Source: a virus. Taken from it: DNA of 64,000 nt. A program made the translations under genes and the position numbers. The notes beneath the pieces were generated by a model that was given only the letters and a program-made list of their open reading frames with translations, was not told the DNA's origin and searched no databases. The stretch lies in IMG/VR virus record IMGVR_UViG_3300046791_000269, positions 2,954 through 66,953 of that record. One strand, 5' to 3'. Below are positions 1-38,825 of this stretch, in pieces; the stretch's first letter is position 1; every line of letters begins with the position of its first letter.

Positions 1-1
1 C

Positions 2-211
2 AGTGGCAAGCCAGGCGAGTGACGGGAGCGGAGGCGCGACGAGGAGACTGCCGACGGGATCGTTCGGCGTCGACCGCTGCGAGCGGTACGGCGTCCGGGG
101 GTTGTCGGTGGCGAGCCAGCCGGTCGACGGCAGGGCAATCGCGAATGCGGTCCCGATTGGTGCGGCCGTCTCGACCCTACGCGGGACGAGCGGAGCGGGA
201 CGGGCTTGCGG
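2..211 (-). CDS. Continuation of the repeat-containing tail fiber reading frame beyond an in-frame TGA; runs off the left window edge
   Basis: Same frame as 212-1855 still encodes the repeat motif (APIGTAFAIALPSTGWLATD, PSLAWLAT) and has no in-frame start codon after the TGA. Confidence 0.35.
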
Positions 212-1110
212 CTCAGCGTTCCACCCGAACGCCGGCAGAGCGCCGGTGAGGATGTTCCCTACCGGTTCGCTCGGAGCGACCCTGATCGCGATGACCGGCG
301 GGTGTGCCGGGAATTCTGCTGTGAGCCACCCGGTCGAGAGCGAGACGAACGGGGTAAGCGGCCCGGTCGGCTGCTGCGATTCCTGCGCACGCGGTGCCGG
401 GATGATCGGGGCGCGGGTGTCAGTGCGGAGCCAGCCCGTGTCGACCGAAACGAACGGCGCGAGGGGGCCAGTCGGCGCACTCGGCTCGACCCGCTTGGCT
501 ACGAGCGTCGGCTTGCGGCAATCGGCTGGGAACCAGCCCGTCGACGGGGAGACGAACGGGACGAGCGGTCCCGTGGGCTGCGAGGCCTCGAGCGCTTTCC
601 GGATCGTCGAGAGCGCGGTCCTGGGAGCCGGGTCGCACATCCAGCCGAGCGAGGTAAGCCCCGTCGGTGCTGCGCCAATCTCGGCGGGGCCCGCGCTGAT
701 GACCAGCCGCCGCGTTCGGGGCGGGGATGCATCGATCTGGAACCAACCGAGCGAGTCGGACGGCGTGAGCAGCGTCCCGACAGGCTGAGACGGCTGGAGG
801 ACTGCCGGATTGGGACGGAGTGCCCGAGGGGGCAGCGGCGTCGACGAACTGTGCGAAAACTTGGTTAGCGCGAATGTGCCGGTCCCGATCGGCGCAGTCG
901 GCTGTAGAACCGGCGGGTTCGGGCGCTTTGCCGCGAGCGGGAGCGGGACAACCGAATTCCAACCGATTGAATCGGTCGGCGTCATCAGCCGCCCAATCGG
1001 CTGCGCAGTCTGTACCGTGAGCGGCTTGATGGCTCGCGGCGGCTGCGGGAGGGGAGTCGACGGACCCCAGCCGATCGTGCTGAGGCCGCCAGCAACGATC
1101 AGTGCGCCAA
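116..1110 (-). repeat. Coding tandem DNA repeat (about 105-bp unit, about nine copies; CCAGCCsGTCGAC..GAGACGAACGG..GGnCCnGTnGGC)
   Basis: Units start at 116, 326, 431, 533, 641, 743, about 850, 959 and 1066. Confidence 0.7.
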
Positions 1111-1855
1111 CCGGCGCCACCACCTCAACGAATCGCGAGAGCGGTTTGTGCCGGCTCGGCGGGAACAGCGGAACGCGCAGCGGCTCCTGATCCGTGCTGA
1201 CGCTACCGAGCGTAACGGTCGGATTGTCGCTGTCGGTGGTGAGCGTCCCGTGGAGGGTAAACGCGCCACCGGAGCCGCTGTTCGTGGTGTCGCTCGCCGT
1301 CGAGAGACCCATAAACGTGTGCGTCCCGGTCGGGTCGGCGAGAGACTGAGACTGGGTGAGGTTCGCGCCCGTGCTCAGGACGGAGGTAACGATGCCGAAC
1401 GGACGAATGGACGTATTCGGGTTCGGCCCGCCGCCGTCCCAGAAGACGAACATGTTGAGCGCGCCACCGCCCAGGGTGAGCTGCGCGCCGTTCGTGATCG
1501 TGTCGGTACTAAGAGAAGTCTCGCCTTCCTTTCGGAACTCGATGACGTAGTTGGCAGAGCCGGAGGTGTGCTTGATCGAGCAGTAAACGTAGTCGGTGTA
1601 ACCACCCGTCGAGAACGACCCCGCATCGAAGCCGGCGCCGCTGTTGACGAAAAAATCGACGCTGTCAGTCGCGATCTCGTCGGTGTCGATCCCCATCGAA
1701 TCGGCGCCGCCCGACCATCCGAAAACCTGGGTGAAGGTCGTGCCAAAGCCGGAGACCTTGACCCACGCCCAGATCGTCCAGTCACCCGTAACAGTCGGGT
1801 TCCCGGCATCTGCGCGCGAAAGGTAGTTCGCGGAGGATGTGGATTTAGCCGCCAC
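212..1855 (-). CDS. Tail fiber protein with a non-repetitive N-terminal domain and about nine C-terminal 34-36-aa tandem repeats (PTGPLxPFVSxSTGW). Not in the supplied ORF track
   Basis: Manually checked open frame from GTG at 1853-1855 (GGGGG RBS 6 nt upstream) down to TGA at 212-214. The N-terminal part (GDWTIWAWVKVSGFGTTF..) reads like a real protein. Repeat-unit spacings are 102, 105 and 108 nt, all multiples of 3. Confidence 0.6.
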
Positions 1856-2231
1856 GCTTTACCCCCAGCGCGTCGCAAACTGCGTCACAGAGCACCCGCC
1901 GACGCTCGTGCTTCGCCGCTAGCCCCGGGGACATCGGCTGTTCCGGTCGGCGCGTCCGGCGCTCCTCGCGCTCCTCGGGAGTGAGCATGCGATCGATTAG
2001 GATGTCGCGCGCAATCCCAAGCGCCTTGCCGCGCGCAAGCTCCGGAAGCCTGTTCAGCACGTCAGCGAACCAGACCTCACCACGCTGAGCGCGCAAGCGC
2101 TGGACGGGCTCGGTGCCGAGATCGATCTCGTGCGTGACGGTCTCGGTCAAGCCGTCGATCGACGCGGTACCCCGCGCAACGGCACGGAAACCGACGTGTT
2201 CGAGAAGCTCTACCGAGGCGGAGGCTTTCAT
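1845..2231 (-). CDS. Hypothetical protein (128 aa)
   Basis: ATG at 2229-2231 with GGAG 7 nt upstream. Internal start of track ORF 1845-2306, whose N-terminus is Arg-rich. Confidence 0.45.
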   Translation of the reverse strand: MKASASVELLEHVGFRAVARGTASIDGLTETVTHEIDLGTEPVQRLRAQRGEVWFADVLNRLPELARGKALGIARDILIDRMLTPEEREERRTRRPEQPMSPGLAAKHERRRVLCDAVCDALGVKRGG

Positions 2232-2245
2232 TGTAGACTCCGCGA

Positions 2246-2572
2246 ATGTCCGAGAAGGCCTGCGAGCTCTGCGGTTGCGTCGGTTGGCACGGCTGCATGG
2301 GTCCACAGCACATCAACGACTGTCGCTGGCTCGATGGCGCCGACTGCACCTGCGATTTCGAGGCACGGCTCACGCGCCACGCCGCGCTGTTCAGCGACCG
2401 CGAGCGCATGATCGCCTTTTGGCAGAGAGAAGCCGAAGAGCGGCGCGTAATCCGCGGGCTCGGGAAGAAGTCGGTGGACGGCATCGTCCATGTGAATTCG
2501 CGGGAGGGCTTCGCTTCCGTGAATTCTGCGGATGGCGTCATTCGCGCGGCGCTGCCTGCTCGTCACGGCTGA
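2246..2572 (+). CDS. Small Cys-rich protein (CELCGC..C..C..C zinc-binding-like N-terminus)
   Basis: Balanced composition. CELCG motif is shared with the N-terminus of the HNH endonuclease at 6959. Confidence 0.45.
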   Translation: MSEKACELCGCVGWHGCMGPQHINDCRWLDGADCTCDFEARLTRHAALFSDRERMIAFWQREAEERRVIRGLGKKSVDGIVHVNSREGFASVNSADGVIRAALPARHG

Positions 2573-3456
2573 GTCACCCGCACCCAATCGATCTGCATGT
2601 TGGCCGGGTAACCTGCTGGGTTCGGTGTCCCGCCGGCGCCGCCAACGGCCATGTTGAAAACGATGTACTGAGCGAAGCTCGGGACCTGCGAGCCGGACGC
2701 CGTTTGCGTGGTCACGAAACCGTTCCCATCCTCGGCGTCTCTCGACCAGATCATCGAGCCCGCGGACCATTGCAAACGGTAGACGGCGAACTGCGCGCTC
2801 GCATCGAAGCCGAGTGAGTTCTCTCCGCCCGTATGGCTCGCGTTGTAGTGAACGATATTGTTCACCTGCGTGCGGTGGCCGGCGAGAAATTCCGCGATGT
2901 CGGTTTCGCACCAAGCATCGACGGGCCAGTTTTCACCGACGCCGTTCGCCGTGTAGGGCTGCGACGCTTGCCAGTTCTCGCCGAGCATCCAGAAGCAAGG
3001 CCAGACGCCTTGTCCGCCTACGGGAGGCTTGAGTCGCGCGCTCACCGTTCCATAAAGGAACTTGAACCGCGACTGGATCTGGCCTGACGTGTAGTTATAC
3101 GTGACGAGCGGCGTTTCGAAGTCGTGCGGGAACGCCTCGTCGCGGTCGTTCGAGTCCTTGTCCTCGAAGCGGGCAGTGATCGAAAGGATGCTGCCGGTGA
3201 GCGAGATATTGGACGATGTCGGGGTGACCGCGTCCAATTCGCTGTTGTCTAGATCGCCTTGACGGTCGAACTCTGGCTGTCCCGGGACTCCGCCGGTCCA
3301 CTTCGCTTGGTCGAGCGAGTGACCGAGGAAGTCGTCGAAGAATGCAGAGCCGTCCGACGGCACAATGGCGCCGCCCGTGTTGCCGCCAGTGATCGACGAC
3401 TTCCCGCCGATGCGGTAGCCGTAGTCAAAGCTCTGCGTGAACGTGCCGAGTGCCAT
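2563..3456 (-). CDS. Glycoside hydrolase family 16 beta-glucanase (laminarinase/lichenase-like)
   Basis: GH16 catalytic motif E-T-D-I-A-E (WCETDIAEF) and the WPCFWMLG signature. Confidence 0.8.
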   Translation of the reverse strand: MALGTFTQSFDYGYRIGGKSSITGGNTGGAIVPSDGSAFFDDFLGHSLDQAKWTGGVPGQPEFDRQGDLDNSELDAVTPTSSNISLTGSILSITARFEDKDSNDRDEAFPHDFETPLVTYNYTSGQIQSRFKFLYGTVSARLKPPVGGQGVWPCFWMLGENWQASQPYTANGVGENWPVDAWCETDIAEFLAGHRTQVNNIVHYNASHTGGENSLGFDASAQFAVYRLQWSAGSMIWSRDAEDGNGFVTTQTASGSQVPSFAQYIVFNMAVGGAGGTPNPAGYPANMQIDWVRVTQP

Positions 3457-3462
3457 GCGGGC

Positions 3463-3756
3463 TCAGCCGACCGCTAGAATCAGCCGCTCGCGCTGCTCGT
3501 ACGCCCGGAGCTGCTTCTCGAACGGCTGGCACTGAGGCACGCCGATGCAGGTCGGGCAGATCAGGGCGTCGCAGGAGTGACAGCGGCGGATGTCCCGCTT
3601 CTCCTTGCCCTGGCGGATGGCCATTGCGAGCCCCTGGAGCGTCACGTCCTTTTGCATCCGGACAATCCGGTTGCAGTGCGCACAAGTAAAGGTCTCGATC
3701 TCCTCGGTAGCTTCCCCGGGGACGATGATCTGGCTGTAGCCCTTGGCTCGATTCAT
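3463..3756 (-). CDS. Small zinc-ribbon protein (CxxC..CxxC..CPTC)
   Basis: Four Cys pairs. Real start may be an internal one. Confidence 0.45.
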   Translation of the reverse strand: MNRAKGYSQIIVPGEATEEIETFTCAHCNRIVRMQKDVTLQGLAMAIRQGKEKRDIRRCHSCDALICPTCIGVPQCQPFEKQLRAYEQRERLILAVG

Positions 3757-3782
3757 GTGGTAAAACCTGAGCTGGTGAAACG

Positions 3783-4151
3783 ATGAAAACGCTGTACGAA
3801 AGATCGTTAGAGGCGCTGGTTGCTCAACTCGAGGCTGAGAACGAACGGCTACGTGCCGCCGTCACGCCGAGCCCGGCTGTTGCGGCTCCGGCAGAGGAGA
3901 CATCGCAACTCCCGCTTTACGTTGTGCCGCGCATCGGCCGGAGCAGTCAGCCGCCGCCGGAGAAGAGTGGGGCGCCAACGTCAGATGAGAAGCGCGCGGT
4001 TCTCTTTGCTCGCGGCTGGACTCACCACGAGGAGATTTACGAGCAGAACATCCCCGTTTGCTGGGAGCGAGGCGCCAAGTGGTACTCGCTTGATGACGCC
4101 TACAAGGTCGAATTGGGAGAACTGAGCGAGTCCGCCGCGGTGTCGTCGTGA
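3783..4151 (+). CDS. Hypothetical protein (122 aa) with an N-terminal coiled coil
   Basis: Non-biased composition. Confidence 0.45.
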   Translation: MKTLYERSLEALVAQLEAENERLRAAVTPSPAVAAPAEETSQLPLYVVPRIGRSSQPPPEKSGAPTSDEKRAVLFARGWTHHEEIYEQNIPVCWERGAKWYSLDDAYKVELGELSESAAVSS

Positions 4152-4381
4152 AGCTCGTCACGAGACTGGCCAGAGAGGCCGGCGGGAATATTCGATGGGA
4201 GCGCTATAACGAGGATGCGCCGCAGCCGATCCCCATGAGTTTCCGCGATGACAACCGAAGATTTGTCGTCAAGGTCATGCTCGAAGACGGACGGTCTGTG
4301 CTCCTCGATCTTGAGGTGCAGGACGATGCCGCCGAGTCCTCACGACCGCGACGCGCTAGCCGCCGTGTAAATCAAACATGA
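4148..4381 (+). CDS. Hypothetical protein (77 aa)
   Basis: Stop/start overlap with 3783-4151. Confidence 0.4.
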   Translation: MKLVTRLAREAGGNIRWERYNEDAPQPIPMSFRDDNRRFVVKVMLEDGRSVLLDLEVQDDAAESSRPRRASRRVNQT

Positions 4382-4832
4382 GATGCACCCGCGGAGTAGT
4401 CCCCGCGTTCCAGACCGCGTGACGCTCCCGTGTGTTGATCTCGTAAGAAAAGCCGGCCGCCATCCGGTGGACAGCGTCGCCGGAGATGAACATGGCGTCG
4501 GGGTTCGTCAGTAGCGGGACGTGGATCCGCGTGACCCAGTCGTCCCCGAGTTCGTCCGTGTGCGGCTCGATGAATGCGCCGGGCATCACGACTGAGAGCA
4601 GCCGGTTGCGCTCGCGGTAAGCCTTGAGCGGGGCCGGCGTCGCTGCGCGTGCTAGCTCGTCCGTCACGGCCCCGAACGACTGCCACGCCAAATCGGTGAC
4701 CATGGCGGGACGAATCAGACCGTCGGGAAGCCGCGTCTGCTGCGGCCAAAGATCGAACGGGATCGCCGCTACCCATTCGACGACTCGACTAAGCGTCAAG
4801 GCATCTAGGGGCAGCGGCTTTCCTTGCGTCAC
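4356..4832 (-). CDS. Cupin-fold 2OG/Fe(II) oxygenase, aspartyl/asparaginyl beta-hydroxylase family-like
   Basis: HxD...H triad candidates (IEPHTDELG ... RIHVPL), typical of the AspH domain. Confidence 0.5.
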   Translation of the reverse strand: MTQGKPLPLDALTLSRVVEWVAAIPFDLWPQQTRLPDGLIRPAMVTDLAWQSFGAVTDELARAATPAPLKAYRERNRLLSVVMPGAFIEPHTDELGDDWVTRIHVPLLTNPDAMFISGDAVHRMAAGFSYEINTRERHAVWNAGTTPRVHLMFDLHGG

Positions 4833-4835
4833 ACG

Positions 4836-5285
4836 CTACTCGTGGAACGCGATCGCCACGTTGACGTTCGTGCCGATGCCGCCCGCGGCGATCATCTGGA
4901 ACCCGATGCCAGCGTTGGCCGTCGCGGGAATCACGAGCTCGCTCAGCTGGTCGTAGGCCGACCACGGAACGACCGCGCGAGGGTTGAAGAACACGTCATC
5001 CAAGAAGCCGGCCGAGTAGGTCGGTTCGATGGAAGCGTTGACGCCCGCGATGACGACCGACGCCGGATCGGCGAGATCGACCTGCTGCGGCGTGTAAGCC
5101 GTGGACGTGCCGGTCGCCGTGCTGCGCCGAACCTGAACCTCTGCGTTCACGTCGGTGGCGGGAGTGCCAGTCGCCGAGATGCGGAAGTACGAGATCCAGC
5201 CGCGCTGCGCCGCCGTGCCCGTCATGATGAGCGGGGTCTTGGTGGCCGCCGCCGCGATGAAACCTGCTGCCGTATACTTTGCCAT
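4836..5285 (-). CDS. Hypothetical virion/tail protein (149 aa)
   Basis: AGGA RBS. Sits in the structural module. Confidence 0.5.
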   Translation of the reverse strand: MAKYTAAGFIAAAATKTPLIMTGTAAQRGWISYFRISATGTPATDVNAEVQVRRSTATGTSTAYTPQQVDLADPASVVIAGVNASIEPTYSAGFLDDVFFNPRAVVPWSAYDQLSELVIPATANAGIGFQMIAAGGIGTNVNVAIAFHE

Positions 5286-5435
5286 TGTCTTGTTTTCCTA
5301 GGTTGTTGTTGGTCTCCCGAATGCATTCGGGCCTGGCGCCCGATGGGGACGCACGGATCTCCGGCAATCTGCCGGCTTAGTTCGTGTTGGGTGACTCGAT
5401 GGGGGCGAGTCGGGGACTAGCGAGTGGTACGCATC
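5286..5435 (-). promoter_or_regulatory. Structured intergenic region with two perfect palindromes (CCGGCAATCTGCCGG at 5360-5374; CCCGAATGCATTCGGG at 5315-5330)
   Basis: Read directly. No U-tract, so not a canonical terminator. Confidence 0.4.
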
Positions 5436-6941
5436 TCAAAACACGTTCCACACGCGACATTCCCCACGTGCGCCGTCGCCACCTGCTCCGCCGACAGTCG
5501 TACCGGGGCCACCGCCGCCGCCTGCGCCGCCCGGGATCCCGCCAGCCCCGCCTTTGCCGCCAGTGCCAGCCGTGTGTGGGGCTCCGCCGCCGCCACCAGT
5601 GCCGCTCTTGTCGTTGTTGCCCGCGACGCCATCGGTCCCGGCTGCGCCGGCGCTACCAGTTCCGGCTGCACCGCCACTGCCGTCGACAACGCTGTCCGTT
5701 CGGCATCCTGAGCCGCCGCCTGGCTGTCCGTTGATCGGTGAGTTCGCCGCGTCGATAAATCCGCCGGCACCGCCGCCGCCGGCCGCGTAGCAGGAGTTTC
5801 CGCCGCGCCCGTTGAAGGCCGTGGCTGCGCATCCGCCGCCGCCGCCGCCGCCGAACATCGAGCAGCGTCCGTGCTGCGAGTTGCCGCCGGCGCCACCACC
5901 GAAACCGGCGTTCGCGCCGTGGTTCGAGTCGGTCGGCTGAGACCCGCCCGGCTCGCCACCCTTGGCGCCCGTCGTCCCGCCGTTGACGCCGACGCTCATC
6001 GAGCCGCCGCCGCCTGCGCCGGATCGGTCAGTCACGCTCGAGCCGAGGCCGCCAGCGCCGCCGCCGTAGGCGCAGCACTTGGCCGTCGAGCCGCTCACAC
6101 CAAATGCCGTGAAGCTGCCGGCCTTGCCGTCCGAACCATCAGCCACGCTGCCGCCCGCGCCGCCCGTCGTGGCAACGGCTACCGTCACGGTTTCGGTGGA
6201 GCTGAGATCGTTTGCGTCGAGCCTGCGCGTCGAGCGTGCCCCGCCACCGCCTCCGGTTCCGCCCTGACGGATGCCGCCCGCAACCTTGCCGGCGCCGCCG
6301 CCGCCACTGCCGCCGGCCGCAATGCAGTCCGCCACGGCCTCAAGCAGCCCGGGCCGCTTGGTCCAGGTCCCGCTGACCGTGAAGATGTCGAGAATCACCC
6401 CGCCGCGCTCGATGATGAACGTGAGCGCCGTTGAATTGAGTGTGATGGTGTCGTTCGCGGTGAGCTGGAAACGCTGGTTCGCGTACTGCGTGCCCTCGCG
6501 CGCGGGGACGAGCAGGCAGTCGAACACCTCAGCGCTTGAGTCCATGTCGGCCGCACGGGTGAACACGTAGGGAGTGCCAGCCGAACCGAGCGATGTGACT
6601 GTGTAGATCCCGTTGTCGGCCCCGAGCGTCTGCTGCCAGACGAGGACGCGGTTACCGACGCTGAGGGAAACGCCGTCCTGTGCAGCAAGCGCGCCGTTCG
6701 CGTTGGCCGTGAGCACGTTGCCCGTTCTGGTAGCCACGAGCGCGCCGGTCGTCGCAACACGGACCGGATCCTTGATAGTGTGGTCGCGCTCGGCACCAAT
6801 CGTCGCGATGCCCGTAACCGGGTCGTACGCAACAACCGTCGACGTGAAGTTCAGGCCCTTGATCCGGCCTGTGCCGGGGACCTGGACGCCGTCGACGTAG
6901 ACGGTGACGCCGCGGAGGCGGTCTAAATACGGTAAACTCAT
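5436..6941 (-). CDS. Glycine-rich tail fiber protein (501 aa)
   Basis: Globular N-terminal domain followed by a long Gly-rich low-complexity region. The + strand Pro-rich ORFs here are its shadows. Confidence 0.65.
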   Translation of the reverse strand: MSLPYLDRLRGVTVYVDGVQVPGTGRIKGLNFTSTVVAYDPVTGIATIGAERDHTIKDPVRVATTGALVATRTGNVLTANANGALAAQDGVSLSVGNRVLVWQQTLGADNGIYTVTSLGSAGTPYVFTRAADMDSSAEVFDCLLVPAREGTQYANQRFQLTANDTITLNSTALTFIIERGGVILDIFTVSGTWTKRPGLLEAVADCIAAGGSGGGGAGKVAGGIRQGGTGGGGGARSTRRLDANDLSSTETVTVAVATTGGAGGSVADGSDGKAGSFTAFGVSGSTAKCCAYGGGAGGLGSSVTDRSGAGGGGSMSVGVNGGTTGAKGGEPGGSQPTDSNHGANAGFGGGAGGNSQHGRCSMFGGGGGGGCAATAFNGRGGNSCYAAGGGGAGGFIDAANSPINGQPGGGSGCRTDSVVDGSGGAAGTGSAGAAGTDGVAGNNDKSGTGGGGGAPHTAGTGGKGGAGGIPGGAGGGGGPGTTVGGAGGDGARGECRVWNVF

Positions 6942-6958: not shown

Positions 6959-7528
6959 ATGGATCGAGTCTGCGAACTCTGCGGTTCTAAATTCCGCGTG
7001 GCGCCCTACCTGGCCAAGCGTGGCTATGCGCGCTTCTGCTCGCGCCTGTGTTTCAAGTCGCGAACTGACGACGCCCTCTTTTGGGAGAAGGTCAATCGTG
7101 ATGGTCCCATTGTCCGTGAGGAACTCGGACAGTGCTGGGTCTGGACCGGCGGAACAACAACCGGCTACGGCTCGGTCAGGCTGAAAGAGCTACAGCGTTC
7201 CGTGCTCGCGCATCGCTACTCGTGGAAACTGGCGCACGGGGAATGGCCGGCCCTGTGCGTCTTGCACAAGTGCGACAACCGCCCGTGCATACGCCCGGAG
7301 CATTTGTTCCTTGGAACACACGCCGACAACACCGCAGACATGATGCGCAAGGGGCGCCACCGCCAGGCGCCTCTACGTGGCGCCGATCACCCTATGTCCA
7401 AGCTCACTTGGGAGCAGGTCCGGGAGATTCGGGCCAGCAGCGAGAAGAACGCGGACATCGCTAGACGGCTCGGCATAGTCCCTGAACACATCTCACGCAT
7501 CCGCGGCGGCCACGTCTGGCGCGAGTAG
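6959..7528 (+). CDS. HNH homing endonuclease (HNH_3/AP2-like)
   Basis: CWVWTG..GYG..HR..HKCDNRPCIRPEHLFLGT..DN core, opposite strand to the surrounding tail genes. Confidence 0.85.
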   Translation: MDRVCELCGSKFRVAPYLAKRGYARFCSRLCFKSRTDDALFWEKVNRDGPIVREELGQCWVWTGGTTTGYGSVRLKELQRSVLAHRYSWKLAHGEWPALCVLHKCDNRPCIRPEHLFLGTHADNTADMMRKGRHRQAPLRGADHPMSKLTWEQVREIRASSEKNADIARRLGIVPEHISRIRGGHVWRE

Positions 7529-8539: not shown

Positions 8540-9157
8540 ATGAGTGCGCGAATAGTACTGCAATGCGTCCGCTGCTGCGCTGAGTTCAGCGTGTGGCCCC
8601 ACGAACTACGGAATGGGCGGCGCTTCTGCTCCAAGAATTGCGCGTACGGCGCTCGACTAGGCGAGGCCGGTAAAATTGACAGGCTACGCTCGCGATTTCT
8701 AAGGAGAGTGAACGCGGCGGGTCCCGTACTGCGTCAGGAACTCGGGCCTTGCCATGTATGGACTGGTCTGCGCGACAGGTACGGGTATGCCCAGATGTAT
8801 GCCTGCGGCAGAAGGCGTCCGGCTACCCACGTGGCCATCTATCTCGTCCGCGGCCATTGGCCGTCGGCATGCGCGCTTCACAAATGTGACGGCGGCCCGA
8901 TCGGGTGCGTCCGCGAGGACCACCTGTTCGAAGGGACCAAGGCCGACAATACGGCAGACATGCTCGCAAAGGGACGGGCATGGAAAGGGCGCGAGGTGGG
9001 GACAGGGCCTAAAAAATTAGACGCCGATCGCGTTCGTGAGATCCGCCGGTTGTTGGGTGGCGGCGTCACGCATCGAGCGATTGCCGCCCAGATGGGCATT
9101 GACAGAACAACCGTCTCGCAGGTGGCCCGCGGCCGCACGTGGCGGCACGTGATCTGA
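8540..9157 (+). CDS. HNH homing endonuclease, paralog of 6959-7528
   Basis: CHVWTG..YGY..THVAIY..HKCDGGPIGCVREDHLFEGTKADN. Confidence 0.85.
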   Translation: MSARIVLQCVRCCAEFSVWPHELRNGRRFCSKNCAYGARLGEAGKIDRLRSRFLRRVNAAGPVLRQELGPCHVWTGLRDRYGYAQMYACGRRRPATHVAIYLVRGHWPSACALHKCDGGPIGCVREDHLFEGTKADNTADMLAKGRAWKGREVGTGPKKLDADRVREIRRLLGGGVTHRAIAAQMGIDRTTVSQVARGRTWRHVI

Positions 9158-9813: not shown

Positions 9814-10581
9814 TCAGGCGAGCGGCAGCGGGATCTCTGTCCCGCCGCCCCAGATCACTCCGGCCGATCCCCACGTGCCGCCGGATTGTCCCCAGTTGAT
9901 TTGAATCCCCTGCTTCAGAACGAGCCCGCGGCAGATCCATCGCGATGGTTTCCATTTGCGAATGATCCTGATGACCGTGCGCCGGAACTCGGGGGAGTAG
10001 CCGACGGGTCCCCAGACGCCGTCGTAGGTATCGCCCCAGACGAACGTTCCCCAGGGGATCGGCGGGCCAACAACGGGGTGATAACCGGAGTTGAAGACCA
10101 CCCAGAACTGGGACCAGTACGGGGCCGGCTCGCCACGAGGTCCAGGCTCGGACGGGCGGAGCAGGATGTACGTTCCGACATCGCCCCACGCGTAGCCTGT
10201 GGTGCCCCAGGGGAGCCCCGACTCGCCCCACGCTGGAGCCGTAACGGTCGGGCCGAAACCCGCGGCGCGTAGCTGCTCGTTGATGACCGTGTCCGAGCCG
10301 CCGAACGAGTAGATCGTCCAGGCGCTGTCGAGCCGGTTGCGGTGCTGCTCTGGAGACTCGAGCGAGTACCGGTCGAGTCGCCGGTCTTTCGCGATGACCG
10401 GCAGAATGTCGTCGGGGCTCTCCGGATCGTCGAGGAGATGCATCCTCGACGCGAGCGTCTGCGTTTCTTGCGCAGTGTCCGCCGTGACACCGACGAGAAC
10501 GCCGAAGAAGGCACCGGCTAGCTCCGCCCGCTCGTCGCTGTTCGACCAGGACTCTACGAGGTCGGTGAACGTGGCGGCCAT
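9814..10581 (-). CDS. Baseplate / tail protein (P2 gpI-like position), 255 aa, Trp/Gly-rich
   Basis: Immediately downstream of the baseplate J-like gene. Confidence 0.5.
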   Translation of the reverse strand: MAATFTDLVESWSNSDERAELAGAFFGVLVGVTADTAQETQTLASRMHLLDDPESPDDILPVIAKDRRLDRYSLESPEQHRNRLDSAWTIYSFGGSDTVINEQLRAAGFGPTVTAPAWGESGLPWGTTGYAWGDVGTYILLRPSEPGPRGEPAPYWSQFWVVFNSGYHPVVGPPIPWGTFVWGDTYDGVWGPVGYSPEFRRTVIRIIRKWKPSRWICRGLVLKQGIQINWGQSGGTWGSAGVIWGGGTEIPLPLA

Positions 10582-10585
10582 TGGG

Positions 10586-11767
10586 CTAGCCGTTGATCGC
10601 TTGGTAGACGATGCCCGGGGTGTTCAGGCGAGCGCGGGCTCGAGCGGGAACGGGGATGTTCGCTGCCGGCGTGGTGAGCACGACCGTCGACGACTTGAGC
10701 GTCAGCGTTTCGATCGTCGTGCGGATGACCGACTCGATGTCGTTGATCGGAATGATGTCTTGAGGCCCGGGACTGAAATCGAACCCGCCGAGCGGGACGC
10801 GGCGAACGTAGGCCAGCAGTGCCGCCTCAACCGCCGTCTGGACCTCGGCTTGGGTGAAGTTCCCGGAGTAGTAGGCCGTGCCGACGATGTCGACACCGAG
10901 CTCGGGCGCCTTCTTGACTTGGACCGTGGCGTCCATGCCGAACACGTATCGGCGGACGAGCGCCTGAGCGAGAGCAACGTCCGTATCACTCGCTGTCGCG
11001 TCGAGGCCGGCGATGTACACGTCGAACGTGCCCGCGCCGCGTGGGTTCGTTGAGTCCACCGACGTGGCGATGATGCTCGAGGATGCCGCCAAGCAAAGCG
11101 CCTCAACGGCCTCGTCGATGATCTCGAAACCAGAGAGGAGCGCCCATTTGGACGTATTCCGCTCGTCCAGTCTGTCGTCGCTTTCCTCGTCGACGCCCGC
11201 AAGGAAGAGCGAGTGGGCGGTGATGCTCACGCCGGCAAGGGTCGTGTCGAGCGCGAGGGTGACTTGGTCGACGGAGACGGCGTTCCCGATGTTGGCCTGC
11301 GCGCCGGCAACCTGGGACTCGAAAAGGAGCGTTTGGGTCCCGCCGCTCGCGAGGACCACCGGGTAGACGATCGAGTTGCCCTCGACGTTCCGGTAGGTGT
11401 GGCCATCCGCGTGGAAGATGACCACGTCGCCGAGGTTGATCGTGTGCGGCCCGGCTGATGCGAGGCACGAGAGCGTCGCGAGATGCTGCGAGGCAACGGC
11501 GTCCGCGCGCGTATTCTTGAAGAAGCCGCTACTGGTCCGGGTGAGCGCCTCGCCGGTCGCCGTGGCGGACTGGAACGCGTTCTTTAGGAGGACCGAAATC
11601 TTGCTAAGGCGCGCCTCCGCCTCGGCTTGCATCTTGATCAGGGTCGAGACGATAGAGCCTTCCTGAAAGCTCGTGGCGGTAAAGCCGGAGTCGTCCAGCA
11701 TCTCGAGCAGGCGCTGCTCGGACTGGGACTCGCTCACTTCCGCAATGTCGGACCACAGGAGCTCCAT
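10586..11767 (-). CDS. Baseplate J-like protein (gp47/gpJ family)
   Basis: Size and sequence character of the Baseplate_J family; sits in the baseplate cluster. Confidence 0.65.
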   Translation of the reverse strand: MELLWSDIAEVSESQSEQRLLEMLDDSGFTATSFQEGSIVSTLIKMQAEAEARLSKISVLLKNAFQSATATGEALTRTSSGFFKNTRADAVASQHLATLSCLASAGPHTINLGDVVIFHADGHTYRNVEGNSIVYPVVLASGGTQTLLFESQVAGAQANIGNAVSVDQVTLALDTTLAGVSITAHSLFLAGVDEESDDRLDERNTSKWALLSGFEIIDEAVEALCLAASSSIIATSVDSTNPRGAGTFDVYIAGLDATASDTDVALAQALVRRYVFGMDATVQVKKAPELGVDIVGTAYYSGNFTQAEVQTAVEAALLAYVRRVPLGGFDFSPGPQDIIPINDIESVIRTTIETLTLKSSTVVLTTPAANIPVPARARARLNTPGIVYQAING

Positions 11768-17370: not shown

Positions 17371-18069
17371 CTAGAACGTCTCGCCCATCCGGCGCAAACG
17401 GTGGTTGCCGAACATGGTGTTGAATACGTTCTCGGCGGCCGACGGGTCCAGCGGCTTCAGCGTGTTCGGATCAACATCCGTCTGGGTGAACCGGGTCAGC
17501 GAGTCGATATGGTTGCCGTTAGCGTCCGTCTCGAGCCCAACCGTTCCGAGCTTGCCGCCACCGATCGCGATCGCTTCCGAAACGTGCGGGTAGTCGCGCG
17601 CGTCTTCGGGCTTGGTCTTCTTCGGCTGCGCTTTCGGCTTGTCGAACCACTCCTCGACTTTCCAGACAACACGGAACCCGCCCCTGGCCGTCGGCTGGTC
17701 CCCGCTGATCTTCAGGATCCGGATGTTCGTGATGCCGAGGAGGTTCGGCCAGGGGTGAACGATCTTGACTGGCGAGCGGTCACGGCCGGGCCTGCGCGGA
17801 TTCAGCACCTGGACGATGCGCTGGAACCCAACAAAGTGGCTCTCATTCATCCACTCGTGGATCTCGAACTTGGCCGGGTCGACGCCATTGTCTTTCGACG
17901 TTGGCTGGTCTGAACCCCTAGCCTTCTTGGTGTCGCACTCGATGCCAACGTCGAGGCCCTTGATCTCGCAGATCCCGGGCAGGACCTCACTTGCCATCTG
18001 CACGCTGTTCCAACTGTCGTCGGCGGCTCCGCCCGCGCCGGTCCAGCCGGGGATTTGTGCAGCGGCCAT
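17371..18069 (-). CDS. Tail protein (gpU / Mu gp43-position), 232 aa
   Basis: Directly downstream of the tape measure protein. Confidence 0.45.
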   Translation of the reverse strand: MAAAQIPGWTGAGGAADDSWNSVQMASEVLPGICEIKGLDVGIECDTKKARGSDQPTSKDNGVDPAKFEIHEWMNESHFVGFQRIVQVLNPRRPGRDRSPVKIVHPWPNLLGITNIRILKISGDQPTARGGFRVVWKVEEWFDKPKAQPKKTKPEDARDYPHVSEAIAIGGGKLGTVGLETDANGNHIDSLTRFTQTDVDPNTLKPLDPSAAENVFNTMFGNHRLRRMGETF

Positions 18070-19742
18070 TACGTGCCGTCCTCAAGCATGCGCATCATTT
18101 GCCCGCGGATACCGCTGACGATTGCGCCGGCTGCGCCCTCGGGGGTTCCGTCATGGTCACCGAGGGCCACGTTGATGTCGCCGAACTTGATATCACCGTA
18201 CTTGTGGCCACCGGCGGCTACCGACCCGGCCTGTGTGGCCGAGTTGGTTGAGCGGGAAGCCGCGGCCATGCGGGCCTGGCTTTCCTTTACTGCGTCGCCG
18301 TCGCCGAACGTCTCATTGAGTGGCGTAAACATGAACTTCGCGAAGTCCGACGATGCGAGCGCGATGAATGGCTTGAAGAAATCGGCCGCCATTTGGAGCC
18401 CGGTGCCCATCGCGACCGCGAACCTGACAAAGGACTCACGCAACTCTGCGCCGTGGTCACGAATGAAAACGGCTGCTGCCTGGATCTCCGTCCCGAGCGA
18501 CTTGGCCGCCTCCGACAGAAGTCCAGCGATGTCCGTTTGCTGAACGAACGCCGATGCCGCGTTGAACAGTTCCACGACAGCCTTACCGAGTGCCGCAACC
18601 TGCGGGCCGGCCACTGCCGATTGAATCGACGCCATGATGCTCGAGAACGCGGCGGTGACACCGGGCCCAACCTCTTCACCGAGCGAGATGAAAGCGTTTT
18701 CGACCTGTCCCTTGAGCGTGCGCCACATCCCCCCGACAGAGGACGAATTGATCTTCATCGCGAATCCACCGGACTGCTCCACTCCGAGCTGGTTCCGGAC
18801 CGCCTGCAAAATGGCCGGGATAGCCACGTCGGCCGACAGATCGCCAGCCTTCTGCATCTTGAGGATCTCTTGGCGCGTCTTGCCGAGCGTCTTTCCGAGA
18901 ACCTTGTAAACCTCGTCGGCGCTGACACCGTGCTCCGCGAGCTGGCCGGTGATTTCTTCCGCCTGTAGCCGCCCCTTCATCTTGATCTGCGAGATGGCGC
19001 GCAGGGCGAATTCGGCGCTCTCGGAGCTTCCGGTCAAGGCCTGCAAATCGGCAGACATCCGGACGAGCTCGCGGGCCATCGGAACCTTGAAGCCCGAGTT
19101 GGCCAGCATCTTGAACTGGTCGACCGTTTCGACCACGTCGAGTCCGAGGCCGCCGGCCTCCTTGCGGACCTCGGAGAACTGCTGAGCGGCGAGGGGCCCG
19201 TCCTTCAAAATCGATGTGAGTGCAGTTTTAGAGCGCTGGCCAAAGTCGATGGCGGCCATCGTGGCGCTCGTGAACTTTGCGGCAACGAATCCGACTGCGG
19301 CCGCAGCCACAGCCGACACGCCAGCGATGGTGGCGAGCGCGCCGACCGCTGTTGAGCGCCCCGCGGTGTCGTTCCGTGCTCCGCGCGCTTGGCTGCGGCG
19401 GAGGTTCCTAGCTTGTGTCTGCTTGTGGCGCATGACACCAGCGAAACGCTCCTGGAGGCGGGCGCGCTGTGCGCCCAGCCGACTCTTGGTGTCGGCCGCG
19501 GCGGCCCGTTGCGTGGCCTCACGCTTCTTCTGCATCGCGCGAAGCTCCTGACGATGCGTCGTGTCCGCCATGCGCCGGCTGGCCTTCAGCTTCTTCTGAA
19601 ACGCCGACTCACCCTGATCAAAAATCCGCTGCTTGTCGCGCAGGTCATCGCTAAGGCCACGGATCGAACGCGACATCGCGCGCGCCGGGCCCGTCACCTG
19701 ATTGTTCAGGCGTAGCGTAAAGTCTGCGGAGCCGTCAGCCAT
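18069..19742 (-). CDS. Tail tape measure protein
   Basis: 557 aa, helical, Ala/Gln/Arg-rich with hydrophobic segments. Follows the G/GT chaperone pair. Confidence 0.75.
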   Translation of the reverse strand: MADGSADFTLRLNNQVTGPARAMSRSIRGLSDDLRDKQRIFDQGESAFQKKLKASRRMADTTHRQELRAMQKKREATQRAAAADTKSRLGAQRARLQERFAGVMRHKQTQARNLRRSQARGARNDTAGRSTAVGALATIAGVSAVAAAAVGFVAAKFTSATMAAIDFGQRSKTALTSILKDGPLAAQQFSEVRKEAGGLGLDVVETVDQFKMLANSGFKVPMARELVRMSADLQALTGSSESAEFALRAISQIKMKGRLQAEEITGQLAEHGVSADEVYKVLGKTLGKTRQEILKMQKAGDLSADVAIPAILQAVRNQLGVEQSGGFAMKINSSSVGGMWRTLKGQVENAFISLGEEVGPGVTAAFSSIMASIQSAVAGPQVAALGKAVVELFNAASAFVQQTDIAGLLSEAAKSLGTEIQAAAVFIRDHGAELRESFVRFAVAMGTGLQMAADFFKPFIALASSDFAKFMFTPLNETFGDGDAVKESQARMAAASRSTNSATQAGSVAAGGHKYGDIKFGDINVALGDHDGTPEGAAGAIVSGIRGQMMRMLEDGT

Positions 19743-20867: not shown

Positions 20868-22361
20868 TTACACCGCCACCGATCGGGAGAGACCCACGGT
20901 CGCTTCAAGGTTTTCCATCGGAGGCAGCGGGACTGCCCTCCACGTCGCCTTGACGATGCGCGTACCGAACACGTCATTCGTCTGGTCGATTGTCGCGCCC
21001 TGCTCCTCGACGTGGTTCGGTTGTCCGTCCACCGTCGGGCCGCGCATGACTTCCGCGATCTGCGCGTTGATGGCGCTTTCCATCTGCTTGGCCGCCACCG
21101 GGTGAATCGGCCGCTGCGTCACGCCCGGGACTCTGATGGTCGAAACCTTCGAGTTCCGGTAGCGCGCAAGCGCCATGTCGAACACCGTGGTTCCCTCGTC
21201 GAGGGTCACGCCGAAATCCCAGTAAAGGAAGTCGGAGCCGGCCGGGCTCTTGAGGTAGCCGTTCGTCGGGAAGAATCCGGGTCCGCTCTGGTCGGTGCGG
21301 AACGTGTTGGTCTTGTCCGCTTCGGTGAAGATCGGCGCCTTCATCTCGTCGTTCGAGATGGCCACGACGCCGTCCATCGGACCGGACGCCACGCGCCCGA
21401 GGTTCTCGGAGATTTGCGCCCGAACCGCCCGGAGGAAGTTCGAGTGGATCTCAGAGACGCGCGGGATCGCGAAGCCAGCGAAGGGCTGCGGGCTGATGCG
21501 CTCCTCGAGGCCGTACTGGACAGCCACGCGGGAGTTGGCGAACACGCCGCCCACGCTGGTCAGGTAGTTGGCGCTCGTATCGATCGAGCCGCCGTCCGCC
21601 ATCGCGCGGGCAAAGTGCTTGCTCGTGGCGAGCGTCGACATGTGTGTAGCGATAGCCGCGAGAACCGTTGCCGCCGCAGACGCCGACGCCGGATTGCCGG
21701 CAAAGCAGACCTTGCGGATCTTCCGGTTGTTGAGGAGCGGCGACGCGAGGAGTGCCGTGATGGCTGTGCCGAGGTCGGTCGTGTTGTAGTGCGGGCACGT
21801 CGAGGTGCCGGTGAACACGTCGCCGAGTTCGAAGAAGGTCGGGCCGCCACCGGGCGTAAACGTCCACGTGAACCCAGCCCCGGGCACAGCGAACGTTCCG
21901 CCGGCCGGGATGATGATCTCCTCAGAGAACGTCCGGTCCGTGTCGGCCGTCGCGTTGGTGCGGTCGAGTGAGTAGTCGAACTTGCCGACTCCCACCGTTC
22001 CGGTCTTCTTGATGCGGATCTTGACCGCAAAGTCGTGCGTCGCTCCGCCGGCGGACACCGTCATGGTGCCGGTGCTCGTGCCGATACGAGCGACGGTGAT
22101 CGCGCTGTTCACGCCAGCAACGGTCGCCGCCGTCTTCAGAAAGAAGCAGCCGCCGATCGCGTCGATGCAGGAGAGCGCGATGTCAACGCCGGGCCCGCGC
22201 CCCACGGCGGTCTTGAACGCCTGTGGATCTGTCCCCATGTAGAGCGTCGCGGCTGTGCCGGCGCTCGACGGGGCAATGACAAGCGGGAAATTCGCTCCGC
22301 CCGAGACGAGCTGGAGCCCGCCATCCTGGACCGTGATGGTAACTGTGCCCGGATAGGCCAT
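20868..22361 (-). CDS. Contractile tail sheath protein
   Basis: 497 aa; sheath-like sequence character and position. Confidence 0.75.
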   Translation of the reverse strand: MAYPGTVTITVQDGGLQLVSGGANFPLVIAPSSAGTAATLYMGTDPQAFKTAVGRGPGVDIALSCIDAIGGCFFLKTAATVAGVNSAITVARIGTSTGTMTVSAGGATHDFAVKIRIKKTGTVGVGKFDYSLDRTNATADTDRTFSEEIIIPAGGTFAVPGAGFTWTFTPGGGPTFFELGDVFTGTSTCPHYNTTDLGTAITALLASPLLNNRKIRKVCFAGNPASASAAATVLAAIATHMSTLATSKHFARAMADGGSIDTSANYLTSVGGVFANSRVAVQYGLEERISPQPFAGFAIPRVSEIHSNFLRAVRAQISENLGRVASGPMDGVVAISNDEMKAPIFTEADKTNTFRTDQSGPGFFPTNGYLKSPAGSDFLYWDFGVTLDEGTTVFDMALARYRNSKVSTIRVPGVTQRPIHPVAAKQMESAINAQIAEVMRGPTVDGQPNHVEEQGATIDQTNDVFGTRIVKATWRAVPLPPMENLEATVGLSRSVAV

Positions 22362-28496: not shown

Positions 28497-29360
28497 TCAG
28501 TCGATGAGCGAGGCCGGATCGATTCCGAGTGCCTCGAACTGCTGGAGTGTTCTGGTTGCGGGATCGCCGCTGAGCGGCTGTCCGCCGCCGCCACTTCCGG
28601 GGACACGCGGACCGGGTGGTCCGCCGCCGCCAGTGGGCTTGGGTGCTGCCCGAAAAAGCTTCATCCCTGGCTCTTCGAGAAGAACCGGGATCGCTTCCTC
28701 GAGCGCGATGTCCTCGTCTGCTTCCGGTGCGCCCTTGTACGGGGCGCGCTTCACGCGGAAGAGCGCGTTTCCCTGTTCGTCGACCTTCAGCCGCCCCTGA
28801 ACCAGGGTGAGATGATCGATCGCAATGTCGGTCATGCCGGGCGCGAGCTTGTCGGCGAGCCCCGAGCGGAGCTTCAGCTTCGCTGCGTCAAGCTTTCGAT
28901 TCGTCTCCGACTCGGCACGTAGGCGCGCCTCTTCCTTGCGCGCGGTCTCACTCGCCTCGAGCTTCGTAGCAAGTTCTTGGAGCTGCCGAGCTACAGCGTC
29001 GTCGCTGGCCGCCTTGCCGCCCTTTGCTTTGCCGCCGTCACCGCTGCCGCCGCCAGAACCGCTGTCGTCGGGCTTTGGGATGAGTTCGGTTACGACGGGG
29101 CCAATCAGGCCCTTCCAGTCGACGCCCTTGAGTTGCTCAGCAAGCGCAGGCTGGCGCTTGAGATGACTCGTGACGGCCGCGTTGACGGTCTGGCCAATGG
29201 CCGCGAGCTGCTCTTCCGAGAAGAGCGGCTTCGGCGGATCTCCACCGCCGCCATCGTCTCCAGCCTTGTCCAACAGGGGGAACGGTCGATTGAATAGGAG
29301 CATGCCAATCCTCTTCCGGCCGATGGCTGTGGCCGTTCGCCTTGTGGGGGCGTTACCCAT
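28497..29360 (-). CDS. Capsid scaffolding protein
   Basis: Gly-rich linkers plus a long charged coiled coil, located between the portal and capsid genes. Confidence 0.65.
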   Translation of the reverse strand: MGNAPTRRTATAIGRKRIGMLLFNRPFPLLDKAGDDGGGGDPPKPLFSEEQLAAIGQTVNAAVTSHLKRQPALAEQLKGVDWKGLIGPVVTELIPKPDDSGSGGGSGDGGKAKGGKAASDDAVARQLQELATKLEASETARKEEARLRAESETNRKLDAAKLKLRSGLADKLAPGMTDIAIDHLTLVQGRLKVDEQGNALFRVKRAPYKGAPEADEDIALEEAIPVLLEEPGMKLFRAAPKPTGGGGPPGPRVPGSGGGGQPLSGDPATRTLQQFEALGIDPASLID

Positions 29361-30013: not shown

Positions 30014-30576
30014 AGTCTTGCTCGCAAAATCTTTGCCCCGCGCCTGACGAGCTCGGGTTCAATTTGGTCCCAGACGGTGCGACAACCGACGGCCATCGCG
30101 CTCTGCCCGGGGACTCGCTCGGCCACTTGCGTGTCGAGCTGGATGAAAAGGTCGGCGGGAAGGCCCGTCGGGTTCCTGGCCAGCCATTTTCTCGTGGCTC
30201 GGGCCATGATGACGTTCTCGCAGACCATCGGGCCCGGCTCGTCGAGCCACTTCGCTGCGGCGACCGATCCCTGATCGGGACCGAGGCCGACATCCTTCAG
30301 CTCTTCGCCGTGATGGTACTTTCGACCGTCGACCGCGAGCTTTCGAGCCAAGTGCGACTTACCCGCTCGTGGGCCTCCTGAGATGACGATCCGCTCATGC
30401 TGCTGGTGGCTCAGCAGTCTTGCCAGGCCGTCCAGTGCCGTTCGGTGGGCCGCTCGTTGGGCTGGCGAAAAGCGCTGCGGCGGCTTCTCGCTCGAGCCTC
30501 GCGTCCTCTGCGGGATCCGTTGTGCCAACCTTGATCTCCTCGCGGATGATCGTCTTCGTGGTCTCGGGCAGGTCAC
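30010..30576 (-). CDS. P-loop NTPase / small kinase-like protein
   Basis: Walker A motif GGPRAGKSH. No ATG/GTG/TTG between the portal stop and the Walker A, so the start must overlap the portal 3' end. Start is uncertain. Confidence 0.45.
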   Translation of the reverse strand: MTCPRPRRRSSARRSRLAQRIPQRTRGSSEKPPQRFSPAQRAAHRTALDGLARLLSHQQHERIVISGGPRAGKSHLARKLAVDGRKYHHGEELKDVGLGPDQGSVAAAKWLDEPGPMVCENVIMARATRKWLARNPTGLPADLFIQLDTQVAERVPGQSAMAVGCRTVWDQIEPELVRRGAKILRARL

Positions 30577-36835: not shown

Positions 36836-37027
36836 GCCGAAGTCGGGCGGGGTCAGAAAGTCCACGTCGGCTCGTCCGTATCCGCCGTCGAATGGCGCCT
36901 CAAGCCGAGGCAGTGCGTCGCCGTCGACGGGAATGCGCACGCAATGCCCGGCACCGTCCTTGCGGGTCTCGCGGCGCCGCCAGAACTTGCAGCTCCCGCA
37001 CCTCGGCTCCGGCCCGGAGATCATCAA
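36803..37027 (-). CDS. Small Cys-containing protein (74 aa). Its C-terminal 10 aa (CVLHEPKGTE) are encoded by the repeat
   Basis: Cys pairs CGSC..C; ATGA coupling. Confidence 0.4.
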   Translation of the reverse strand: MMISGPEPRCGSCKFWRRRETRKDGAGHCVRIPVDGDALPRLEAPFDGGYGRADVDFLTPPDFGCVLHEPKGTE

Positions 37028-37950: not shown

Positions 37951-38825
37951 GGGTGCTCCGTGTAGTGCGCGCGAGTGAGCTCGATACCCTCTGTGATCCA
38001 CACGGCCGGACGCCAGCCCGTGGCGTGGCGGAATGCCGACGTGTCCATCACCGCGTTCCGTGTGTCGATCGCAGCGAGTACGGTGTCCGGCGTTACGTGC
38101 TTGAAGTTGCCGCCCGCGGCAATCGCCGCCACCCTTGCGAATAGGTGAGCCGCTCCAGAGCCGACAACGAAGTGCCGCCCGTTCGTCGTGGCCTGGTTGG
38201 CCGCAGCGAGCATGAACGCCCGACACACGTCGTCGAGGTAGACGTAGTCCCGGGTCCAGTCTCCGGCGCCGTAAACCTGGACCGGTTCGCCCCTGGTTGA
38301 CTGTCGGATCATTCGGTTCAAGACGCCGCGCGTCGGGCCGCTCTCGCTCGTGCTTTGGCCGTAGACGTTGGCCAGTCGGAGCGTGCAGCCGCGTGCCCAT
38401 CCGCGCCGGCAGGCGTGCTCGAGCGCCATCTCGGCCATGCATTTGTGTAGGTCGTAGACGGTGAGCGGTGCGTCGGTCATGCCCTCGTGAATGCAAGACT
38501 CTGCCGGCACGCCAACCTGCGTGGCCGCGCCCGCGAATACGATGAACGGCTTTGGCTCGTGCCCGCGGAACTCCTCGATTAGCCCGTACATGGGCTCGAC
38601 GTTCGCGGACAGATCCTCGAGCGGGTCCTCGTCAGCGTCGCGCGCGCTCGTCTGCGCAGCAAGGTGGAAGACCACCTCGACATCCTTGTCTGGGCCAACA
38701 GCCGCCCCCGCCTCCACGAGCATTTGTACCAGACGCGAGCCGATGTACCCGCTTGCGCCCGTGACGGCGCAGCGTCGGCCCTTGAGCCACTCGATCGCGT
38801 TCAACGGATCTCCCTCTTCAGCCAA
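37947..38825 (-). CDS. NAD(P)-dependent SDR reductase/epimerase (RmlD-like size)
   Basis: VTGASGYIGSRL motif; about 292 aa. Confidence 0.75.
   Translation of the reverse strand: MAEEGDPLNAIEWLKGRRCAVTGASGYIGSRLVQMLVEAGAAVGPDKDVEVVFHLAAQTSARDADEDPLEDLSANVEPMYGLIEEFRGHEPKPFIVFAGAATQVGVPAESCIHEGMTDAPLTVYDLHKCMAEMALEHACRRGWARGCTLRLANVYGQSTSESGPTRGVLNRMIRQSTRGEPVQVYGAGDWTRDYVYLDDVCRAFMLAAANQATTNGRHFVVGSGAAHLFARVAAIAAGGNFKHVTPDTVLAAIDTRNAVMDTSAFRHATGWRPAVWITEGIELTRAHYTEHP

Follow-up and report, generated by a model that had tools for sequence, protein, structure and literature searches.

A rare Pro/Trp-repeat protein encoded by an uninterrupted phage gene is a candidate tail-fibre-like host-recognition protein

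Is the minus-strand reading frame at one end of an uncultured phage's genome segment broken by a stop codon, and does it encode a tail fibre? The segment, referred to below as the window, is a 64,000-nucleotide (nt) stretch of IMG/VR virus record IMGVR_UViG_3300046791_000269 (positions 2,954 to 66,953). An earlier note on it had described the frame at window positions 2-1855 as a tail-fibre gene with about nine tandem repeats, absent from the supplied list of open reading frames (ORFs) and carrying an in-frame TGA. Positions 2-1855 hold the first two-thirds, counted from the 5' end, of a single intact gene of 881 codons in an uncultured myovirus-like phage, with no internal stop. The product is built from three parts, namely an N-terminal domain of ~235 residues (aa), 17 back-to-back Pro/Trp repeats and a ~50-aa C-terminal module, and the 35-aa Pro/Trp repeat is previously unannotated. 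The protein is best read, with a probability of roughly 60%, as a tail-fibre-like host-recognition protein that works with an adaptor of the LtfC/Gp77 type.

Translation of the reverse complement gave a frame that is stop-free from the GTG at 1855..1853 to window base 2, a run of 618 codons with a chance probability of 3e-6 as calculated from base composition; none of 2000 shuffled sequences was free of stops, the longest shuffled run being 450 codons. GC content by codon position is 0.61/0.60/0.80, which resembles that of the neighbouring gene for a glycoside hydrolase of family 16 (GH16) and is typical of coding sequence here. The remainder of the gene was found on contig L001 (Logan SRR26075152, 7,272 bp), which is 100% identical to window 1..4318 and reaches 2,954 bp further. 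The whole gene is called at 2464-5109 of this contig, from the same start as the window GTG, and its true TGA stop is located 790 nt beyond window base 1. The 881-aa product, designated P0001, is 100% identical to the window translation across all 618 aa in the protein search. The GTG is the earliest possible start because an in-frame TAA lies two codons 5' of it (1861..1859). A Shine-Dalgarno-like GGGGGT motif is present at 1861-1866, 5 nt 5' of the start codon, the start of the gene overlaps the end of the upstream gene by 11 nt, and the homologues P0002 and P0003 align with P0001 from residue 1 on. The frame therefore opens at the GTG, as had been proposed, but does not end at 212-214, being open to the window edge. 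The gene is indeed missing from the ORF list, which is an edge effect and not a sign of interruption, since ORFs running off the source are not listed. A circular wrap-around was rejected, as the minus strand at the far window end (62800-64000) does not carry on the repeat ORF, and an exact search with the first 69 nt of the window found no match in the viral contig collection.

Three origins had been offered for the supposed stop at 212-214, namely readthrough (programmed or leaky), a mutation that pseudogenises the gene, or an error in sequencing. The minus strand does contain a TGA triplet at 215..213, one base out of frame; beyond this, nothing in favour of the proposal was found after checking. 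Explicit codon read-out gave GAG as the in-frame codon, encoding Glu-548 within ...FGWNAEPQ... (LPAFGWNAEPQARP). The minus-strand frame that contains the TGA has 9 stops over 1..1900; below the TAA at 1861..1859, the coding frame is free of them. On the identical contig, the called gene runs through to 881 aa, all homologues are continuous at this position, and the GW-N-A-E-P-Q-A-R-P-A-P stretch is kept in P0002. An in-frame stop with conserved coding beyond it, the signature of recoding, was not found; the locus has nothing in common with phage structural-gene readthrough such as that of Q-beta A1, which requires an in-frame stop in a conserved ORF. Instead of a pseudogene, there is a full 881-aa ORF collinear with homologues of 810-1082 aa. 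With GAG in frame and TGA out of frame, there is therefore no readthrough, pseudogene or sequencing error to explain, and almost no weight can be given to any of the three. The repeat goes on past the TGA without a restart codon simply because the ORF is uninterrupted. The flagged TGA is unimportant, as it marks neither recoding nor a pseudogene nor a fault of assembly; the lesson is one of method, namely that window-cut ORFs drop from an ORF list and that a one-base slip made a phantom stop.

The strand assignment of the earlier note, with a real gene on the minus strand and antisense shadows on the plus strand, is supported by the homologues and by the strand of, and overlaps with, neighbouring genes. 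The reverse arrangement, in which the plus-strand ORFs at 3-788, 810-1190 and 1148-1984 are real and the long minus frame is the shadow, can appeal to their being open over 126-278 codons and to the high third-position GC of two of them. That GC, however, comes from wobble positions common to the minus frame. Such sharing had been ascribed to all three ORFs; it holds for 3-788 and 810-1190 and fails for 1148-1984, whose codon position 1 falls on the minus-frame wobble. The plus-strand ORFs are three broken pieces as against one 881-codon frame, and their translations are rich in Arg, Gly and Ala and of low complexity, whereas the minus-strand product has ten homologues (E 0 to 5e-48, including the 100%-identical 881-aa product) with conserved periodic Trp, Gly and Pro. 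The flanking genes are also on the minus strand and overlap both the start and the stop of the repeat-protein gene. Homology thus excludes another reading frame for this gene, and the chance that the plus-strand ORFs are the real genes is negligible.

The 17 contiguous repeat units occupy residues 243-832 of P0001 and are 29-38 aa long (median 35), as delimited by a repeat hidden Markov model (HMM) that had no match in 200 shuffles of the protein. The unit consensus is (R)V-x-P-x-x-P-[VIT]-G, 10-11 residues, G-W and ~12 residues. The ~35-aa repeats described earlier are therefore real, although the window holds ten complete units and part of an eleventh, not about nine. The proposed PTGPLxPFVSxSTGW motif occurs literally in only three units, the others showing a looser P-x-G / G-W pattern. 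Trp-Trp spacings of 34-36 residues are over-represented (z = 4-7), as is the lag of 70 residues (z = 10.6). Pro accounts for 18% of the repeat region, each unit has one Trp, and P-x-x-P is modestly enriched (lag 3, z 2.9). At the DNA level, even the best copies of the repeat share only 62-75% identity, with spacings of 102 and 105 nt, and Tandem Repeats Finder reported nothing for the region; the array is accordingly an old one that has undergone no recent expansion. Three units, located around residues 561-665 (FAIALPS(T/N)GWLATDNPRTP...), hardly vary across 10/10 aligned proteins, with the invariant alignment columns of this conserved core at P566-P624. The C-terminal ~50 residues contain two β-strands at 856-878, as predicted by AlphaFold2 (AF2).

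The earlier description of a globular N-terminal domain followed by ~35-aa repeats agrees with the β-rich part of ~235 aa that precedes the array. AF2 predicts β-strands here at low confidence, with a predicted local distance difference test score (pLDDT) of about 50-64. The signals for a jelly roll of the concanavalin-A/LamG type are weak. Searched with Foldseek, this low-confidence model best matched laminin LG, neurexin LNS and legume lectins, in every case with E >= 0.04. The Pfam Laminin_G_3 profile gave E 0.15 and 12.6 bits versus a cutoff of 27.6, and a profile search of PDB sequences found nothing for the domain. Within the family, P0001 shares this N-terminal type only with P0002 and P0003. 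The domain is probably an exchangeable, carbohydrate-binding module.

An exhaustive HMMER profile search over 1.84 billion cluster representatives (cutoff E <= 1e-3) returned 37 matches. About 18 contain the repeat region, and most others share only a commoner N-terminal domain type. One relative was found in IMG/VR and none in 185,579 species-representative genomes, so that there is no prophage relative and no clue to the host. The family is rare, unannotated and entirely from uncultured phages. Comparison of repeat copy number in related phages, which had been suggested as a check, showed that it varies; at a strict threshold, proteins of 810-1474 aa carry between at least 10 and 28 units. 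P0009 carries a ~230-aa non-repeat insertion in the middle of its array (residues about 500-745, unit spacing 229) with a weak DUF7311 signal, from which it follows that the array tolerates domain insertion. P0038 combines the commoner N-terminal type, which differs from the LamG-like one of P0001, with a looser P...G...W...R repeat and a Gp77 domain fused at the C-terminus. The sequences point to a wider superfamily in which a head would be followed by a Pro-rich repeat and then by an adaptor end. P0035 and P0024 have the commoner N-terminal type and, where the P-x-G / G-W repeat would stand, quite different, long and degenerate Pro-rich repeats of about 35-40 aa.

Six further loci were inspected, DNA being available for five. 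From locus to locus, the flanking genes share 74-88% identity and the repeat protein only 35-50%, and the family contains at least three unrelated N-terminal domain types, that is, the heads have been swapped. Modular exchange and a divergence faster than that of neighbouring virion genes, both of which characterise receptor-binding proteins, were thus observed. A gene of 98-124 aa lies directly downstream in all six further loci, and most of these keep the rest of the synteny, including a 4-nt overlap of that gene with the repeat-protein stop. On L001, the corresponding partner gene (5106-5459) encodes 117 aa, and its GTG start overlaps the repeat-protein stop by 4 nt (GTGA), which suggests translational coupling of the two genes. 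The 117-aa partner matches the LtfC-like β-sandwich family PF23926 (E 5.5e-5, 24.1 bits, profile positions 3-83 of 100), phrog_1084 (E 1.5e-13) and phrog_3304, 'L-shaped tail fiber protein assembly' (E 0.002). The partner gene of locus L002 is a bona fide member of PF23148, 'Podophage GP4 fiber-tail adaptor gp77' (32.4 bits vs a 27-bit cutoff).

Pairwise comparison across six loci sorted the partners into the groups {P0001, P0006}, {P0003, P0004, P0012} and {P0010}. The C-terminal 70 residues of the repeat proteins again group P0003, P0004 and P0012 together, as the partners do. The N-terminal domains group as {P0001, P0003}, {P0004, P0010} and, weakly, {P0006, P0012}, which is discordant with both the C-terminal and the partner groups. 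In these six loci, C-terminal type tracks partner type and N-terminal type does not; on this small sample, an adjacent gene of the adaptor or chaperone kind co-varies with one end of the putative fibre. On this evidence, the adaptor-like partner would act together with the C-terminus, and the N-terminal domain would be a head that is exchanged freely.

The same co-variation is exactly what would be expected if the fibre had the canonical polarity, with its N-terminus on the baseplate, its C-terminus distal, and the partner acting as a C-terminus-specific chaperone or tip adhesin. Proteins of these two kinds, such as lambda Tfa and T2/S16 gp38, typically have their genes just downstream of the fibre gene and co-vary with the fibre C-terminus, and the PHROG 3304 label, 'tail fiber protein assembly', fits this arrangement. 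At least three unrelated N-terminal types in loci whose other genes are 74-88% identical would, however, be unexpected for a baseplate anchor, and the families matched by the partner are tail-proximal attachment proteins, the LtfC collar and the Gp77 fiber-tail adaptor. The canonical polarity is accordingly considered rather improbable.

The reading as a tail-fibre-like protein with an LtfC/Gp77-type adaptor is based on the genome position, the family of the partner and the mode of evolution, which is like that of receptor-binding proteins. The repeat-protein gene lies at the distal end of a myovirus-like tail module, in a same-strand order that has first the structural, baseplate and fibre-like genes, then the repeat-protein gene and then a CHAP-domain gene, with two plus-strand genes intervening. 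In the mechanism proposed, the repeat array would form an extended shaft or spacer whose copy number sets the reach of the fibre; this Pro-rich shaft, for which neither helix nor strand is predicted, may fold only on oligomerisation. The C-terminal module would pair with the small β-sandwich protein encoded downstream, LtfC-like here and Gp77-like in a relative, which in turn would link the fibre to the tail. The neighbouring glycan-active enzymes, GH16 in this phage, may act on the same host surface.

Several observations weigh against the fibre reading. Searches with single sequences and profiles found no family match for the repeat region in Pfam, PHROG, NCBIfam or PDB sequences, and likewise none for the C-terminal region; tblastn of the protein against 50,697 GenBank phage records also returned no match. 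No likeness in sequence or fold to a characterised fibre or spike family was thus found, and the protein is therefore not to be filed in any known fibre family; the 'tail fiber' identity given earlier fits the context but finds no support in homology to known fibre families. The LtfC-like match of the partner, at 24.1 bits, is below the 27-bit Pfam cutoff, and the co-variation argument rests on six loci only. Between the repeat-protein gene and those genes that can be recognised as baseplate or fibre genes lie two plus-strand genes and several small ORFs. The protein has variable N- and C-terminal ends around an invariant centre, whereas a canonical fibre has a conserved N-terminal anchor and a variable C-terminal tip. 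Full-length AF2 with a 10-sequence alignment gave a mean pLDDT of 33.5, with the repeats lacking secondary structure. A run on a 4-unit segment (residues 422-560), for which an in-register alignment, A4, of 27 orthologous and paralogous non-overlapping 4-unit windows was used, gave pLDDT 61.7, a predicted template-modelling score of 0.16 and no helix or strand. Both runs modelled the monomer. As there is no confident AF2 fold, a fibrous trimer is assumed, not seen; the fibre reading, presence in the virion included, is a prediction from sequence.

As judged from these models, the repeat would be either disordered or polyproline II (PPII)-like as a monomer, or would fold only on oligomerisation. 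The former leads to a different account, in which the protein is not a fibre but a disordered multivalent tether whose ~17 P-x-G / G-W motifs each bind a repeated target. The target would be a polymer of the host cell wall or capsule, or else the capsid or tail lattice of the phage itself, where the protein would serve in decoration or as cement; alternatively, the protein would be a non-virion secreted or surface factor. The absence of regular secondary structure in either AF2 run is compatible with such a tether, as are the Pro content, the modest P-x-x-P enrichment and the one invariant aromatic residue per unit. P0035 and P0024, relatives that share the family's commoner N-terminal domain, carry quite different Pro-rich repeats, as linkers would be expected to do, and the gene adjoins glycan-active enzymes and the lysis module, outside the baseplate block. 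These points are countered by the invariance of the repeat positions and of the three central units at an overall identity of 35-50%, which indicates a defined structure or interface, and by the overlapping partner gene, which belongs to fibre-attachment families. Moreover, when the alignment is shallow, AF2 often fails with intertwined trimeric fibres that are modelled as monomers. This non-fibre account is regarded as unlikely.

Known systems provide partial parallels for the fibre reading. In DT57C/T5, LtfC forms a dodecameric collar that takes up the lateral fibres by β-strand augmentation, and in DT57C, it is short β-strands of the fibre terminus that augment the LtfC sheets (PMC10713586). 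As in T5-like LtfA/LtfC, a long candidate fibre gene here adjoins a gene for a small, putative single-domain β-sandwich protein, and P0001 has two predicted terminal β-strands (residues 856-878). The differences are that the LtfC-like match falls short of the curated cutoff and that LtfA binds by its N-terminus and goes on as an α-helical coiled coil, whereas here the co-varying end is the C-terminus and the shaft is of the Pro/Trp type; the fibres have no sequence similarity, and the phage is myovirus-like, not siphovirus-like. The Ralstonia podophage GP4 gp77 system (PF23148) offers a second parallel, through the L002 partner in the same family and the Gp77 domain fused C-terminally in P0038; the window phage, in contrast, has the LtfC-like partner type, and its fibre protein and those of its relatives are unrelated to any PDB sequence.

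Repeat-built shafts, such as the triple β-spiral of adenovirus and reovirus or T4 gp12/gp34/gp37, likewise consist of diverged tandem repeats with a globular end domain, and a copy number that differs among relatives would set the length. This comparison was tested through the Pfam and PDB searches. Adenovirus and reovirus triple β-spiral repeats are about 15 aa long; the family described here differs by its ~35-aa period, its 18% Pro, an invariant Trp per unit, the lack of a Pfam match and the lack of predicted β structure. Wall-binding repeats of the GW type (choline-binding PF01473 and Listeria GW modules) are also tandem, with a conserved Gly-Trp in each, and the aromatic residues of those families form the sites at which wall polymers bind. 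They have periods of about 20 aa (choline-binding) and about 80 aa (GW), however, are not Pro-rich and form well-folded units of the β-hairpin or SH3-like kind; when 9 members of the repeat-protein family were searched against Pfam with hmmscan (E <= 1), neither of the two families was found. A literature search for Pro/Trp or polyproline-II repeat fibres found nothing relevant. By analogy, we infer that in its working the protein would be most like adaptor-attached side fibres (T5/DT57C LtfA-LtfC, GP4 gp77) together with repeat-built shafts, and would differ from both in repeat type, composition and possibly polarity.

Taken to its limit, the fibre reading would make the family a new fibre class. 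Its Pro/Trp shaft would be neither a β-spiral, a β-helix, a coiled coil nor a collagen, and could be PPII-like or fold only on assembly; the polarity would be reversed, with the C-terminus docking through an LtfC/Gp77-type adaptor and a lectin-like N-terminal head binding the host, and the protein might be modified by the cupin encoded nearby. That all of these hold jointly is improbable. If the protein is a true fibre, it would represent a new type of shaft, perhaps of unusual polarity, among phage host-recognition devices, and the family would provide a handle for annotating the host-range locus of this phage clade. What remains of interest in any case is a repeat family that is rare and uncharacterised and whose locus is probably one that governs host range.

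The window is a phage segment of ~64% GC that is transcribed mostly from the minus strand (Table 1). No GenBank phage has a terminase more than 31% identical to the one encoded here, hence there is no close reference genome.

Table 1. Mapped features of the window, listed from the repeat-protein gene outwards.
Feature	Position	Strand	Evidence or remark
Repeat-protein gene, codons 1-618 of 881	2..1855	-	product P0001; runs off window edge
GTG start codon	1853..1855	-	L001 gene call and homologue alignment
N-terminal β-rich domain, residues 1 to ~235	1151..1855	-	AF2 strands and weak LamG-like signals
Repeat array, units 1-10 complete and part of unit 11	2..1129	-	HMM matches at residues 243-630
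Start of conserved core, unit 10 (APIGTAFAIALPSTGWLATDNPRTP) and unit 11	2..175	-	near-invariant in all 10 aligned homologues
Supposed stop site	212..215	-	in-frame codon 214..212 is GAG (Glu548); TGA at 215..213
128-aa upstream gene	1845-2231	-	L001 2088-2474; no Pfam or PHROG match; stop overlaps repeat-protein start
GH16 gene	2563-3456	-	Pfam Glyco_hydro_16 E 1.2e-18
Zn-ribbon protein	3463-3756	-	
Asp/Asn-β-hydroxylase-like cupin	4356-4832	-	Pfam Asp_Arg_Hydrox E 1.9e-11; 74% identical to L004 counterpart
149-aa conserved protein	4836-5285	-	no family match; 88% identical to L003 7157-7606
Tail-fibre-like protein	5436-6941	-	
HNH endonuclease	6959-7528	+	HNH_3 E 4e-12
Protein with weak resolvase-type helix-turn-helix match	8540-9157	+	HTH_7 E 0.0017, 18.9 vs 23.8-bit cutoff
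P2-I-type baseplate protein	9814-10581	-	
Baseplate wedge	10586-11767	-	
Tape-measure-like	18069-19742	-	weak PHROG match, E 1.5e-4
Sheath-like	20868-22361	-	weak PHROG match, E 5e-4
tRNA-Ser (anticodon CGA), single	29183-29258	+	in structural region, strand opposite to most genes
Portal	30395-31936	-	
Terminase	31938-33461	-	
490-aa protein	37024-38496	-	phrog_540, nucleotide-sugar epimerase family, E 5e-38

The enzyme slot upstream of the repeat-protein gene varies between loci. It is occupied by GH16 here and in the P0005 locus, by a GH30-like gene in L002 (8640-10004), by a GDSL/SGNH esterase in L004 (8429-9133), and by proteins of no recognised family in L003, L005 and L006. Cassette exchange of surface-polymer-degrading enzymes alongside the fibre is suggested. 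The cupin gene lies 2.5-3 kb upstream of the repeat-protein gene in 6/7 loci, L002 being the locus without it, and it is conceivable that its product modifies the Pro/Asp/Asn-rich repeat protein or a host surface molecule. The 149-aa protein is always encoded directly upstream of the hydroxylase and is far more conserved than the repeat protein.

On the downstream side, the partner gene on L001 is followed by several small ORFs and then by the CHAP-domain gene, which probably marks the lysis module. Both plus-strand protein genes sit inside the baseplate/fibre block, and the HNH gene is probably an insertion of the homing-endonuclease type; in locus L006, an HNH gene also adjoins the fibre locus. 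The 490-aa protein of the epimerase family adds a further sugar-related function to the phage.

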